A stretch of DNA of 64,000 bases. Source: Candidatus Gastranaerophilaceae bacterium. GTDB lineage: Bacteria > Cyanobacteriota > Vampirovibrionia > Gastranaerophilales > Gastranaerophilaceae. Shown here in pieces: positions 897 to 62,687 of the stretch (position 1 is the stretch's first letter; each line of letters opens with the position of its first letter). The stretch is from NCBI GenBank assembly GCA_041678605.1, contig JBAYNW010000001.1:13947-77946 (forward strand), written 5' to 3'. A program made the position numbers and the translations under genes. The notes beneath the pieces are model-generated. The model was not told the origin of the DNA and did not search any database. It saw nothing but the letters and a program-made list of their open reading frames with translations.

Positions 897-1772
897 ATGA
901 CTAAATCAAATAATTTATTCGAATTTGAAAGAAATTTTTCTGCTTGTTCCACCCTTGAGGGGGAACCGACATTGTGTAAAAATTTCGAAGGGGAGAGAAA
1001 AACAATAGTAATCGGCACAGACGAAGCAGGCCGGGGTCCCGGTGCGGGCGGCGTTTTTGCAAGTGCGGTTTATTTTCCTGACCCAAATAAGGAACTGATA
1101 AAAAAACTTGCCTTCCTTAATGATTCTAAAAAGCTTTCAAAGAAAAAGAGAGAAGAACTGTATGAAATAATCATTGAAAACGCAATCCATTCGACCGTTT
1201 GCGTAGAAGTTGAAGAAATAGAAAAAATAAATATCTTGAATGCATCTTTAAAGGCAATGAAATTGGCTGTTGAAAATGTCATAAACGAGATGCAAAGCTG
1301 CATAGATGCAAAGACGCAAAGCGACGCAACTCTTGTTGAGAAAAGAAACTTAGAGATGTGTCATTGCGAGGAGCGAGGCACGAGCGACGCGGCAATCCAA
1401 AAAAAATCTTCTCACCTCTCACCTCTCACTTCTCACATTTTGGTCCTTGTTGATGGAAACAAGTTAATTAAAAACTTCCCCTCGCCCCTTGGGGGAGAGG
1501 GCAGGGTGAGGGTTAATATAACTCAAAAGTTTATAATCAAGGGCGACTCAAAGTCCGCAAGCATTGCGGCGGCAAGTATTTTGGCAAAAGTTTCACGTGA
1601 CAGATATATGAAGGAACTTGGCAAAAAATTTCCGCAGTACAACTGGGGGCAAAACGCAGGATATTTGACGGCAGAACATTTAGATGCTATTGATAAATAT
1701 GGACTAACACCAATTCACAGGAAAAGTTTTTTGAGGAAACACAACGCAAAGCAACTAAGCCTTTTGAATTGA
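897..1772 (+). CDS. rnhB: ribonuclease HII, with in-frame repeat insertions
   Basis: Motifs GTDEAGRGPGAGGVFASAV, LNDSKKLS, VDGN, KGDSKSASIAAASILAKVSRD and NAGY..AEH. True start is uncertain because the N-terminal 35 aa are repeat-derived. Confidence 0.85.
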   Translation: MTKSNNLFEFERNFSACSTLEGEPTLCKNFEGERKTIVIGTDEAGRGPGAGGVFASAVYFPDPNKELIKKLAFLNDSKKLSKKKREELYEIIIENAIHSTVCVEVEEIEKINILNASLKAMKLAVENVINEMQSCIDAKTQSDATLVEKRNLEMCHCEERGTSDAAIQKKSSHLSPLTSHILVLVDGNKLIKNFPSPLGGEGRVRVNITQKFIIKGDSKSASIAAASILAKVSRDRYMKELGKKFPQYNWGQNAGYLTAEHLDAIDKYGLTPIHRKSFLRKHNAKQLSLLN

Positions 1773-5325: not shown

Positions 5326-6237
5326 ATGTTCAGGTTAGAAAAATTTATGGGAAGAAGAGTTTTGAAATCATCTCTATTGGATGATTTCGGCGTTGCTGCG
5401 TTTTTTACAACGAGAGATTTGCCGCTGAAATCAGGCGAAAGAGAAGATTTGATTGAAGAAGTCGAAAACAACAAACGCCTTGTTTGCGAAGGACTTGGTA
5501 TCCCTGCAGAAAACCTCATAATTCCTGTTCAAACTCACAGCGACAATGTAAGATGTATAGGGGCAAAGACGCATAGAAGCGTAGAAAATTTAAACATTTC
5601 AGCCTTTCAGCCTTTCAGCCCTTCAACCCTGGAAAACAACGACGCACTTATAACTGACCGGCCACAAATTGCACTGGCACTAAATTTTGCCGATTGCGTT
5701 CCGATTATTTTTTACGACCCGATTAAAAAAGCTGCCGCAGCGGCTCATGCCGGCTGGCGTGGAACAGCGGCAAAAATCGGCCCAAAAACAGTCAAAAAAA
5801 TGGCTGAAAATTTTGGTTCAAAACCTGAAGACATAATTGCACTTATCGGCCCGGCAATCGGAAAATGCTGTTTTGAAGTGGGAGAAGATGTTAAAGAAAA
5901 ACTGCTCGTCTCTGCGTCACTGCGAGGCTTAAAATGTAAAAATCAGCCAAAGTCGTCCACCGAAGCAGTCTGTCCAAAAGACAATGCCGGCAAGATTGCT
6001 TCGGTGGGTATTTCAAGCCCAGCCGATAATCAATGCCTCGCAATGACGGTTTGTGATAACAATAATATTGATTTAAAACAGATTAACAAACTTCAACTAT
6101 TAGCCATTGGGGTAAGAAAAATAGATTTATGCGAGTATTGCACTTCTTGCAGAACTGATTTATTCTTTTCTTATAGAAAAGAAAACGGCAATACCGCCAG
6201 ACATTCGGCAGTTATAATGATAAGAAATGAGAGATAA
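5326..6237 (+). CDS. pgeF: peptidoglycan editing factor PgeF / YfiH (DUF152 laccase-domain) with two in-frame repeat insertions
   Basis: Motifs VQTHSDNV, NFADCVPI, AHAGWRGT, GPAIGKCCFEVG and LFFSYRKENGNTARH. Confidence 0.8.
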   Translation: MFRLEKFMGRRVLKSSLLDDFGVAAFFTTRDLPLKSGEREDLIEEVENNKRLVCEGLGIPAENLIIPVQTHSDNVRCIGAKTHRSVENLNISAFQPFSPSTLENNDALITDRPQIALALNFADCVPIIFYDPIKKAAAAAHAGWRGTAAKIGPKTVKKMAENFGSKPEDIIALIGPAIGKCCFEVGEDVKEKLLVSASLRGLKCKNQPKSSTEAVCPKDNAGKIASVGISSPADNQCLAMTVCDNNNIDLKQINKLQLLAIGVRKIDLCEYCTSCRTDLFFSYRKENGNTARHSAVIMIRNER

Positions 6238-40682: not shown

Positions 40683-40818
40683 GTCATTGCGAGGGGTGGG
40701 TTTCCGGCTATGCATAGATTGTCCACCGAAGCAATCTATCTTATGTTTGTACATTGGCAAGATTGCTTCGAAATGCAAACCTCTTTGTGTGTCTACAAGT
40801 TTCATGCCTCGCAATGAC
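40683..40818. repeat. palindromic miniature element GTCATTGCGAGG ... GCCTCGCAATGAC
   Basis: Terminal 12-13-bp inverted repeats. Internal CCACCGAAGCAATC / GATTGCTTCG pair. Related copies at 5915-6049, 56017-56110 and 57003-57096; half copies at 1360-1398, 38975-39025 and 46637-46685. Confidence 0.8.
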
Positions 40819-55992: not shown

Positions 55993-56122
55993 GTAAATGC
56001 CAACATCAAGCAAGTCGTTGCGAGGAGTGAGCTTGCGAGCGACGTGGCAATCCAAAACAGTACATAATCCTTCTTGGATTGCTTCGGCTAAAGCCTCGCA
56101 AAGACATAATTTGCAAACGCCA
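55955..56122. repeat. left copy of 168-nt direct repeat (rsgA 3' end plus palindromic CGTTGCGAGG element)
   Basis: Differs from 56941-57108 at 2 positions. Confidence 0.9.
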
Positions 56123-56940: not shown

Positions 56941-57108
56941 AACAAAATATTTATAAGGATTTGGAAGAAGACAAATAAGTAAATGCCAACATCAAGCAAG
57001 TCGTTGCGAGGAGTGAGTTTGCGAGCGACGTGGCAATCCAAAACAGTACATAATCCTTCTTGGATTGCTTCGGCTAAAGCCTCGCAAAGACATAATTTGC
57101 AAACGCCA
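56941..57108. repeat. right copy of 168-nt direct repeat
   Basis: Differs from 55955-56122 at 2 positions. Confidence 0.9.
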
Positions 57109-61286: not shown

Positions 61287-62687
61287 GTGAGAGGTGAGAG
61301 GAAATTATTAATATTTATCGCCCTTATTACCTTGCTTTTAACTGGTTGCATTAAAAAAGATTCCCGAACGGTCATTCAATTCGCAACATGGGGTTCGCAA
61401 TCGGAAGTTGCAATTTTGAAACCGATTTTGGCCGAATTTGAAAGGGAAAATCCTGATGTAAAAGTTGATTTAATACATATTCCGCAGAATTATTTCCAAA
61501 AAATTCACCTGCTTTTTGCGTCAAATTTGGCTCCTGACGTGATTTTTATAAACAACTTATATCTGCCAGTTTATGCCAATGCCGGCGTGTTGCAGGAGTT
61601 GAAAAGCCGAACAGTTGAAAAGCCGATAAGTTTGACTGTTTCAAAGAAAAACCATTCAACCTTTCGACCATTCAACCATTCAATTTTTTATAATAAGGCA
61701 TTGGATGCACTATCTTATGACGGAAAGCTTTACGCCATTCCCCGAGATGTTTCAAACCTTGTAATTTACTACAACAAAGACCTTTTTGACAAATACAAAG
61801 TGCCATACCCTAAAGCAAATTGGACGTTTAAGGATTTTTTAGCTGTGGCTCAAAGGCTTACCAAAGACACAAATAACGACGGCAAAAGGGATATTTGGGG
61901 TGTAAGTTTTGAGGAAGATCCGCCGTTGTTTTATTTGCCTTATTTAATGTCAGAAGGCGGCGGGGTTTTGTCGGACGATTTGAAAACTTTGATAATAGAT
62001 ACACCGCAGAGCCAAAAAGGGCTTAGGTTTTATGCCGATTTAAGAAATAAGTACCACGTGGCACCGACAAAGGCCGAGAGTGCGAGTGCGACCATGGCTC
62101 AATTGTTTTTGCAAGGAAAGCTTGCGATGCAGGTTTCGGGGCGTTGGCTTGTGCCAAAATACAGGGAAGATGCGAAATTTAATTGGGATGTGATTAATTT
62201 CCCAAGAGGGGATAAGGGCAGTGTTGTTCCGCTTGACGCTTCAGGCTGGGCAATTTCAAAAAGTTCTAAGCATAAGGAAGAGGCGGCAAAGCTGGTTGAA
62301 TTTTTGGCGTCAAAAAAAAGTATTGAGAAATTTACCCGAAGCGGGCTGATTGTACCTGCGAGAGTTGATGTTGCGGAGGGCGAATTTTTAGATAGAGATA
62401 GTGCAATTAAAAATTGTTCCTCTTATTTGACCCCCCACCCTTACCTTACCTCTCAACCCAAAGATACTCAATCTTTGGATTTCGGCAGAGTCCCTCAAGG
62501 GGGGAGGAAGAACCCATATAATGTAAGATTTTGCAGACCAAAAAGCGAAAGAGTTTTCATTGACGTAATCAAAACCTCAAAACCCACTCCGGTTTCGGTT
62601 GATTACAGTGAAATTCAGGACGAACTGCAAGAAAAAACGAATTATTTGTTTAATTTAAACACTAATGCTTGTCATGTTTTGAATTAA
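61287..62687 (+). CDS. ABC transporter extracellular solute-binding protein (family 1, sugar type) lipoprotein with in-frame repeat insertions
   Basis: Lipobox LLLTGC. Motifs IQFATWGS and LAPDVIFINN, plus a family-1 SBP pattern throughout. Confidence 0.75.
   Translation: MRGERKLLIFIALITLLLTGCIKKDSRTVIQFATWGSQSEVAILKPILAEFERENPDVKVDLIHIPQNYFQKIHLLFASNLAPDVIFINNLYLPVYANAGVLQELKSRTVEKPISLTVSKKNHSTFRPFNHSIFYNKALDALSYDGKLYAIPRDVSNLVIYYNKDLFDKYKVPYPKANWTFKDFLAVAQRLTKDTNNDGKRDIWGVSFEEDPPLFYLPYLMSEGGGVLSDDLKTLIIDTPQSQKGLRFYADLRNKYHVAPTKAESASATMAQLFLQGKLAMQVSGRWLVPKYREDAKFNWDVINFPRGDKGSVVPLDASGWAISKSSKHKEEAAKLVEFLASKKSIEKFTRSGLIVPARVDVAEGEFLDRDSAIKNCSSYLTPHPYLTSQPKDTQSLDFGRVPQGGRKNPYNVRFCRPKSERVFIDVIKTSKPTPVSVDYSEIQDELQEKTNYLFNLNTNACHVLN

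Follow-up and report, generated by a model that had tools for sequence, protein, structure and literature searches.

A CGTC-tagged palindromic repeat and octamer runs lying in frame within the loops of PgeF in a Gastranaerophilaceae genome

How a conserved enzyme gene can carry a palindromic repeat and short tandem repeats within its reading frame, and whether anything in the repeats themselves favours such an arrangement, is the question raised by pgeF (yfiH) of a Candidatus Gastranaerophilaceae bacterium. The gene lies in a window of 64 000 nt, by which we mean the whole stretch of DNA that was analysed (G000:C1:13947-77946), from a metagenome-assembled genome of 1.77 Mb in 58 contigs with 37.6% G+C. 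A sequence-only reading of the window had described a heptamer run and a palindromic element of exactly 135 nt, or 45 codons, in pgeF, and had taken length and frame as a sign of selection against frame-breaking insertions. Both repeats do lie in frame, free of stops, within an otherwise intact and conserved pgeF. The explanation that we consider very probable is passive insertion of a selfish palindromic repeat into a permissive loop of PgeF, with frame-breaking insertions being purged. The features concerned are listed in Table 1.

Table 1. Position of pgeF, of the repeats in its two loops and of related elements in the window
Feature	Position	Strand	Remarks
pgeF/yfiH gene	5326..6237	+	303 codons plus stop, intact; ORF list, Pfam, structure match
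Octamer run A, loop 1, GCAAAGAC GCATAGAA GCGTAGAA	5563..5586	+	24 nt; encodes AKTHRSVE
Octamer run B, loop 1, TTTCAGCC (three times) and CTTCAACC	5597..5628	+	32 nt, period 8; encodes SAFQPFSPST
CGTC-tagged palindromic element, loop 2 of pgeF	5915..6048	- versus family consensus	nhmmer, covariance model
Left terminal inverted repeat GTCACTGCGAGG	5916..5927		pairs with 6036-6047 in consensus fold
Inner hairpin, CCACCGAAGCAGTCT (5957-5971) and AGATTGCTTCGGTGG (5993-6007)	5957..6007		21-nt loop; DNA fold
Right terminal inverted repeat CCTCGCAATGAC	6036..6047		pairs with 5916-5927, one mismatch
Half element (CHCEERGTSDAAIQ) in rnhB	1360..1400	+	in frame (rnhB, window 897-1769), followed by TCTCACC heptamers
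Intergenic full-length copy, same family	40683..40818	+	136 nt, embedded in larger composite repeat
92-nt sister-subfamily copies next to rsgA	56014..56105, 57000..57091	+ (first copy)	shared termini and inner-stem motif only

The product of the pgeF reading frame (303 amino acids, all 303 codons open) matches the Pfam family Cu-oxidase_4 (PgeF/YfiH, PF02578) with E = 1e-62 over profile positions 20-238 of 238, and also matches solved YfiH/YlmD structures by sequence. It was compared with its 120 closest public homologues, all of which are at most 66% identical to it (BLASTP). Every residue that is invariant in the family is kept, including the catalytic His-Cys-His (His64, Cys117 and His134, in QTHS, FADC and HAGW), which is invariant across all 120. 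An AlphaFold2 model based on the 120-sequence alignment had a mean pLDDT of 86.7 and a pTM of 0.85, with values above 90 in the core, and Foldseek matched it to 1t8h, 6dzd, 6t1b and 7fbg (YfiH/YlmD/PgeF) at E-values of 1e-21 to 1e-24. The sequence-only reading had proposed modelling PgeF with and without its insert; in the model with the insert, the YfiH core is confident but both inserts are poorly defined (pLDDT ~50–78 for residues 71-95 and 46–67 for residues 190-224, in the numbering of the called protein). The protein is presumably made and active.

The palindrome in loop 2 is a genuine member of a repeat family (nhmmer E = 3.8e-27, minus strand; covariance model E = 9.5e-27), but the length given to it earlier does not hold: it measures 132 nt between its terminal repeats (5916-6047), or 134 nt with the flanking C/G, and it encodes 44 codons rather than 45. 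The argument from exactly 135 nt therefore rests on a boundary error. A CGTC tag is found at 5915-5918 and its complement at 6045-6048. The inner stem is 15 bp long, and the inner hairpin is the most conserved block of the element family. Folded as DNA, the pgeF copy reaches −22.8 kcal/mol (z = −4.7). Translation of the plus strand gives 44 stop-free codons (5917-6048, SLRG...LAMT); IASVGISSPADNQCLAMTVCDNNNIDLK is an example of a peptide that the block would yield if expressed.

The genome-wide survey of copies that had been called for, carried out with an nhmmer profile and the covariance model, returned ~35 loci in the host genome: ~13 full copies of 130–137 nt, ~12 copies of a 117-nt subfamily, and fragments. 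Across the family, the 12-bp terminal repeat (invariant) and the inner stem CCACCGAAGCAATCT/AGATTGCTTCG are conserved; the arms between the terminal and inner stems are unpaired, and only one pair shows a compensatory change. Outside the host, the family was found in only 6 of 40 relatives (G012, G008, G035, G023, G029 and G025), a patchy presence that is typical of mobile or expanding repeats. Concerning the other copies in the window that had been assigned to the same family, the assignment is correct for the one at 40683-40818, but those next to rsgA share only termini and inner-stem motif with the family and so represent a sister subfamily, whose ~90-nt members have the form GTCRTTGCGAGG...GGCAATCCAA-loop-TTGGATTGCTTCG...CCTCGCAAWGAC. 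No direct repeat indicative of target-site duplication was seen beside any of 13 copies. Intergenic copies sit in larger composite repeats and their flanks are themselves repeat modules; since the flanks are repeated and target-site duplications are absent, the unit of movement is uncertain.

Is the length of the element then a trait that conserves the reading frame? Among the ten further full copies, lengths of 130, 136 and 137 nt occur, none of them divisible by 3, and pgeF holds the only full copy whose length is. Length modulo 3 was accordingly rejected as a property of the element, and with it the idea that the length is frame-conserving by design. As to stops, 14 of the 60 copy-by-frame combinations of full copies other than that in pgeF are stop-free (~23%); the probability of 44 open codons is ~0.11. 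With ~23% of frames stop-free and one length class in three preserving frame, ~8% of genic insertions would pass. No full copy has diverged further than that in pgeF, which has 65% identity to the consensus (nine of the ten others have 82–89% and one has 71%); such divergence would fit an old copy evolving under different constraints.

The octamer runs in loop 1, which follows QTHSDNV, are repeats of another kind. The run of TTCAGCC/TTCAACC reported earlier exists, but its period is not 7: the 'heptamers' correspond to 7-nt cores repeated at intervals of 8 nt at 5597-5628, and TRF gave a period of 8 with 3.6 copies (families D1/D2 of the repeat search). Run B is among 63 runs of at least three TTYRRCCN units genome-wide, and the double octamer occurs 64 times in the genome against ~0.35 expected. 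Run A is the sole run of its strict pattern in the genome; a similar run is present in rnhB, and DAKTHRGIE, a peptide related to its product, occupies the same position in several PgeF homologues. At the shortest common length among the 120 homologues loop 1 has 13 residues; here it has 30. The length of TRF arrays modulo 3 was dropped as a measure because array boundaries are not insertion boundaries. The runs recall the STRR heptamers of cyanobacteria, in which short tandem units likewise make up interspersed mosaic arrays, in a genome of the cyanobacterial lineage. However, STRRs are tandem 7-nt units, and the loop-1 run, besides having a period of 8, is intragenic and translated.

When pgeF was compared with its counterparts in related genomes, in 36 of 40 of which the gene is present, the palindrome was missing from all 36. 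The proteins of these relatives match only residues 1-197 and ~244-301, and in none of the 36 does anything align to residues 198-243. The alignment contains one clean extra block, with flanks that are collinear with the orthologues: close homologues read KEKILAS-IDETAHSQ-VCTNNNID where the protein studied here reads KEKLLVS-A-(44 aa)-VCDNNNID. Loop 2 comprises 22–23 residues in 80 of the 120 homologues and 60 here, a net gain of 37 residues over the usual loop; as ~7 ancestral codons are missing, the event in pgeF was not a simple insertion. In two relatives, G012 and G008, the element family is present and the pgeF site is empty. These comparisons are between species; the PgeF protein cluster has two members, probably from one and the same sample.

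The site of the palindrome is a region of variable length in solved PgeF homologues, and the sequences of other homologues show how variable. Loop 2 is expanded in 40 of the 120, up to 82 residues, by at least eight unrelated types of peptide, most of which resemble sequence encoded by repeats (LPLTPTLSRKGRGG, PSPQPSPRRGEGE, VGVETPTY, AGGLVNPPYA, AWQNKSQTSKP and others); VGVETPTY matches a peptide encoded by a GTAG REP of the host genome. Loop 1 is expanded in most homologues, one of which bears a CGTC-type half element (CHCEEGNDEAIQ). In the nearest relative (G023; L002, G023:C26), the loop-1 insert is a heptamer mosaic (...KGKGEKGKAKMKNSSSLSSHLSPLTSHS...), with 41 other copies in that genome, at a place where the host has octamers. 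Repeatedly hit by unrelated repeats across genera, the two loops provide a natural map of insertion tolerance in the PgeF fold.

Might the inserted residues have acquired a role? The 44 repeat-encoded residues, or the octamer-encoded loop, could now be functional, for instance as an interaction surface or in the regulation of PgeF. The frame is still open although the copy is old and diverged, a helix is predicted by AlphaFold2 at residues 225-235 (called-protein numbering), partly within the palindrome insert, and it is the same two loops that are expanded in many homologues. Yet the insert is missing from every relative, homologues carry unrelated sequence at the site, and confidence of the model is low across the insert; moreover, that so many unrelated proteins bear insertions speaks against a specific function. 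We regard such exaptation as quite unlikely.

The distribution of repeats over the rest of the genome bears on passive insertion. Short repeats were defined as self-BLAST segments with at least four copies, and genes by a crude call from ORFs and codon usage. The 531 segments so obtained make up 4.2% of the genome; only 61 lie wholly inside putative genes (48 genes), although genes cover 83% of the genome. Short repeats are thus ~7-fold depleted in genes, and the gene-to-intergenic ratio would imply that ~3% of genic insertions survive. Selection against frame-breaking insertions, as proposed in the sequence-only reading, fits these numbers, although the 45-codon argument given for it does not hold. 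In 40 putative genes the repeat segment is at least 30 codons from either end. All of the 20 such hosts that were scanned have Pfam domains and are conserved genes; they encode MnmE, GcvP, an Fe-S/CCG protein, NFACT/RqcH, DNA polymerase I (PolA), a PD-(D/E)XK nuclease, CdhD, TsaD, a tRNA U5-methyltransferase, UvrD, a radical-SAM protein, MetRS (metG), a Mur ligase, BirA, UvrA, a metalloenzyme, fumarase, PheT, asparaginase II and a methyltransferase.

CGTC-type pieces also occur in frame within rnhB, uvrC, comEC and the gene for the CCA-adding enzyme. The complete in-frame copy in uvrC has 94 nt between its terminal repeats and lies within a net insertion of ~38 codons, a block that is absent in 14 of 14 relatives. 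Different genes read through the terminus in different frames, and all three are represented (SLRG/SLRE, CHCEE and VIAR). With three frames in use and lengths that are not divisible by 3, the in-frame state reflects survivorship and not the design of the element; it needs no special property of the element, and chance is adequate to account for it. A rough scan for genes split by repeats found none among the 5 of 10 candidates that were examined: two (C6:40665 and C35:8468) proved false on translation, the flanking frames being non-coding in one and the other lying between adjacent genes, and in the remaining three the frame does not change across the repeat (two pilin-like leaders and one long ORF).

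It could also be supposed that pgeF has been inactivated and that its open frame is a coincidence in a decaying gene. The gene is dispensable in E. coli, and the ~8% of random insertions that would keep frame without stops give coincidence some room. Against decay, all codons of the gene are open and the invariant residues of the family, catalytic ones included, are retained; the copy is the most diverged, which suggests an old insertion after which the gene has remained intact; and the same pattern is seen in the essential genes metG, pheT, polA and tsaD. This makes decay very improbable.

A still smaller chance, slight at best, attaches to an artefact by which a repeat would have been collapsed or mis-joined into pgeF during assembly. 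Repeats of the element family are indeed often at contig ends in the assembly. However, a 5.6-kb Logan contig from SRR6484787, assembled independently, encodes an identical PgeF protein with the same neighbouring genes, so that the insert is not the artefact of one assembler; a copy of unique sequence, 65% identical to the consensus, cannot have arisen by the collapse of consensus copies; and the flanks are collinear with those of the orthologues. Removal of the block after transcription or translation, for example by ribosomal bypassing or processing with the 12-bp terminal stem bringing the flanks together, so that the mature protein would be without it, has a strong hairpin potential as its sole support and can be practically dismissed, given that the open frame makes bypassing unnecessary, that neither intein or intron signatures nor an Rfam match were seen, and that half elements or pieces with other boundaries lie in frame in other genes.

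Under passive insertion into a permissive loop, a non-autonomous CGTC-tagged repeat, a long representative of the REP/RPE class of inverted repeats, would have inserted into the surface loop that PgeF has between the helix after GPAIGKCCFEVGEDV and the DLK...N..QL block. It would have survived there as the net change kept the frame, the frame used was stop-free and the loop tolerates extra residues. The 44 additional residues would be carried as a poorly ordered excursion, the enzyme core and the catalytic His-Cys-His remaining intact. The octamer runs after QTHSDNV may be pieces of the 7/8-nt mosaic repeats of the genome that were retained in the same way.

The closest precedents are the Rickettsia palindromic elements (RPEs), which are summarised in PMC10969869 and PMC1779305 as interspersed palindromes of 100–150 bp with lineage-specific proliferation (Ogata et al. 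2000, 2002), many copies of which lie in frame in unrelated housekeeping genes, including pheT, with host proteins that are apparently functional. The ends of RPEs carry a CGTC tag (PMC3733652). The element described here resembles them as an interspersed palindrome within ~100–150 bp (132 nt here), present at ~35 loci, in frame and stop-free in conserved genes and absent from orthologues. It differs in its host, a member of the Melainabacteria and thus of another phylum, with no evidence of an intracellular lifestyle; the likeness is one of architecture, behaviour and CGTC tag. In the host genome, moreover, several unrelated repeat classes (7/8-nt mosaics, GTAG REPs) behave alike.

RPE-4 and RPE-6 are included among the CGTC-tagged REPs, which form inverted dimers, are without a dedicated transposase and have been found inside uvrA/B/C/D, polA and tRNA synthetase genes (Di Nocera, De Gregorio & Rocco 2013; PMC3733652). 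CGTC tags at both ends, organization as an inverted dimer, lack of a dedicated transposase and intragenic copies are shared with our element, as are a consensus stem that starts with AT and, in the 90-nt subfamily, a ...AATCCA tail. In contrast, the REP families 1-4 of that study have a stem of 8–9 bp, a loop of 4–5 nt and a CCA tail (here: 12-bp terminal repeat, ~108 nt, 15-bp inner stem). The intragenic and supplementary tables of PMC3733652 list none of the peptides LAMT, ARND and HCEE; the element is therefore not one of its four families. CGTC repeats were not reported there from Cyanobacteria or Melainabacteria.

A further resemblance is to MITEs (ERIC, BOX and those of Anabaena; PMC10969869), which are likewise small and non-coding, with terminal inverted repeats (12 bp, with one mismatch, in pgeF) and occasional in-frame ORF fusion; unlike for MITEs, no target-site duplication was seen. 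An insertion sequence that shares its termini, and so might be its parent, did not come up among the motif pairs, PF01797 being the family searched for genome-wide. The REPIN/RAYT system differs in that the RAYT genes present here are not flanked by the palindrome. What we describe is the RPE or intragenic-REP phenomenon in a new lineage and not a new kind of system. It adds the non-photosynthetic sister group of cyanobacteria to the lineages with 'selfish DNA inside genes', alongside Rickettsia and some Proteobacteria, at a comparable density (~2–3% of genes, including those for DNA repair and translation). For annotators, it means that repeat-encoded blocks should be taken neither for domains nor for frameshift errors.

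What mobilises the palindrome was approached through its host genome. Two RAYT genes (Y1 transposase, PF01797) are present (C2:15690-16220, minus strand, and C11:47560-48120, plus strand; L058 and L059), both flanked by GTAG-tagged REPs that are unrelated to the CGTC palindrome. They are therefore REPtrons, and mobilisation of the palindrome by RAYT was rejected because their flanking REPs are unrelated to it. No partner transposase having come to light, the palindrome is assumed to be mobilised in trans or to spread through recombination or replication slippage. Its insertion would presumably be neutral or slightly deleterious. In a separate observation, the C2 RAYT gene has its own REP in frame, as DDVGVETPTYGY, and this peptide also occurs in loop 2 of PgeF homologues from other genera.

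Look-alikes were sought with the pattern TTGCGAG..AGCAATC..GATTGCTTC in one genome per species. At least 120 loci were found, ~13 being expected by chance in the whole collection (an estimate), in Bradyrhizobium and other Alphaproteobacteria, Rickettsiales, Chloroflexota, Patescibacteria, Bacteroidota, Ignavibacteria, Nostoc and others. Among the 158 matches listed, 130 also have the right-hand terminus, and the preceding base is C (CGTC) in 97 and T (TGTC) in 38. The palindrome CGTCATTGCGAG...GAAGCAATC(C)-loop-(G)GATTGCTTC...CTCGCAATGACG spans 75–115 nt and has near-identical termini in many phyla (L060-L139 and more). ORF clustering of the neighbours revealed no transposase enriched near the 120 cross-phylum copies covered, and neither the window nor 15 loci from other phyla contained an Rfam match at gathering score. 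A literature search by element sequence returned only chance primer matches or nothing, no searchable paper quoting the sequence, and one on Melainabacteria and repeats found nothing relevant. It is conceivable, if unlikely, that palindromes with termini CGTCATTGCGAG/CTCGCAATGACG around an inner stem GAAGCAATC/GATTGCTTC are all one ancient mobile element of many phyla that lacks its own transposase and drives loop evolution, more than being tolerated as junk; if so, this and other repeats of Gastranaerophilales would be a regular source of new surface loops and the two loops of PgeF recurrent acceptor sites.

Several other genes of the host deserve mention. In tmk (C8:43502-44125) and nrdD (C19:6094-8274), a CGTC-type element supplies the last residues and the stop (...ILCHCEE* and ...SSLREVSIANDAAIQKVC*, respectively). 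The gene for RNase HII (rnhB, 897-1769) contains, all in frame, AGATGCAA-type octamers, the half CGTC element and TCTCACC heptamers (SSHLSPLTSH), with a PSPLGGEGRVRV block further on, after the heptamers; the repeats lie between conserved blocks. A putative gene at 61287-62684 (C1:75233-76630) has two in-frame segments, an octamer run (KNHSTFRPFNHSI) and a ...LDFGRVPQGGRKN block. In a biotin-protein ligase (C36:6068-7402; L048), a DUF559 endonuclease-like domain (residues 237-341) is situated between the catalytic domain and BPL_C, and the same gene includes three tandem TPTPNPPPQGGRESAK repeat units in frame.

Finally, ~22 genes for type IV pilin-like proteins (...QP|AFTLAEVLI...), all outside the window, have in front of them a block of repeat modules (for example at C18:28687-29664, C11:55912-56800, C9:47940-48930 and C26:23360-24420) made up of a 117-nt CGTC-type element, modules of 48 and 78 nt, and heptamer or octamer runs. 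The block is open in the frame of the pilin for 41–113 codons in 19 of 21 genes (exceptions on C56 and C7), the lengths of its modules are all multiples of 3, and in many cases a TTG, five codons upstream, is the nearest start. The block may be a translated leader of some length or else a 5' UTR; all frames of the modules are poor in stops, so that the open pilin frame is compatible with both.
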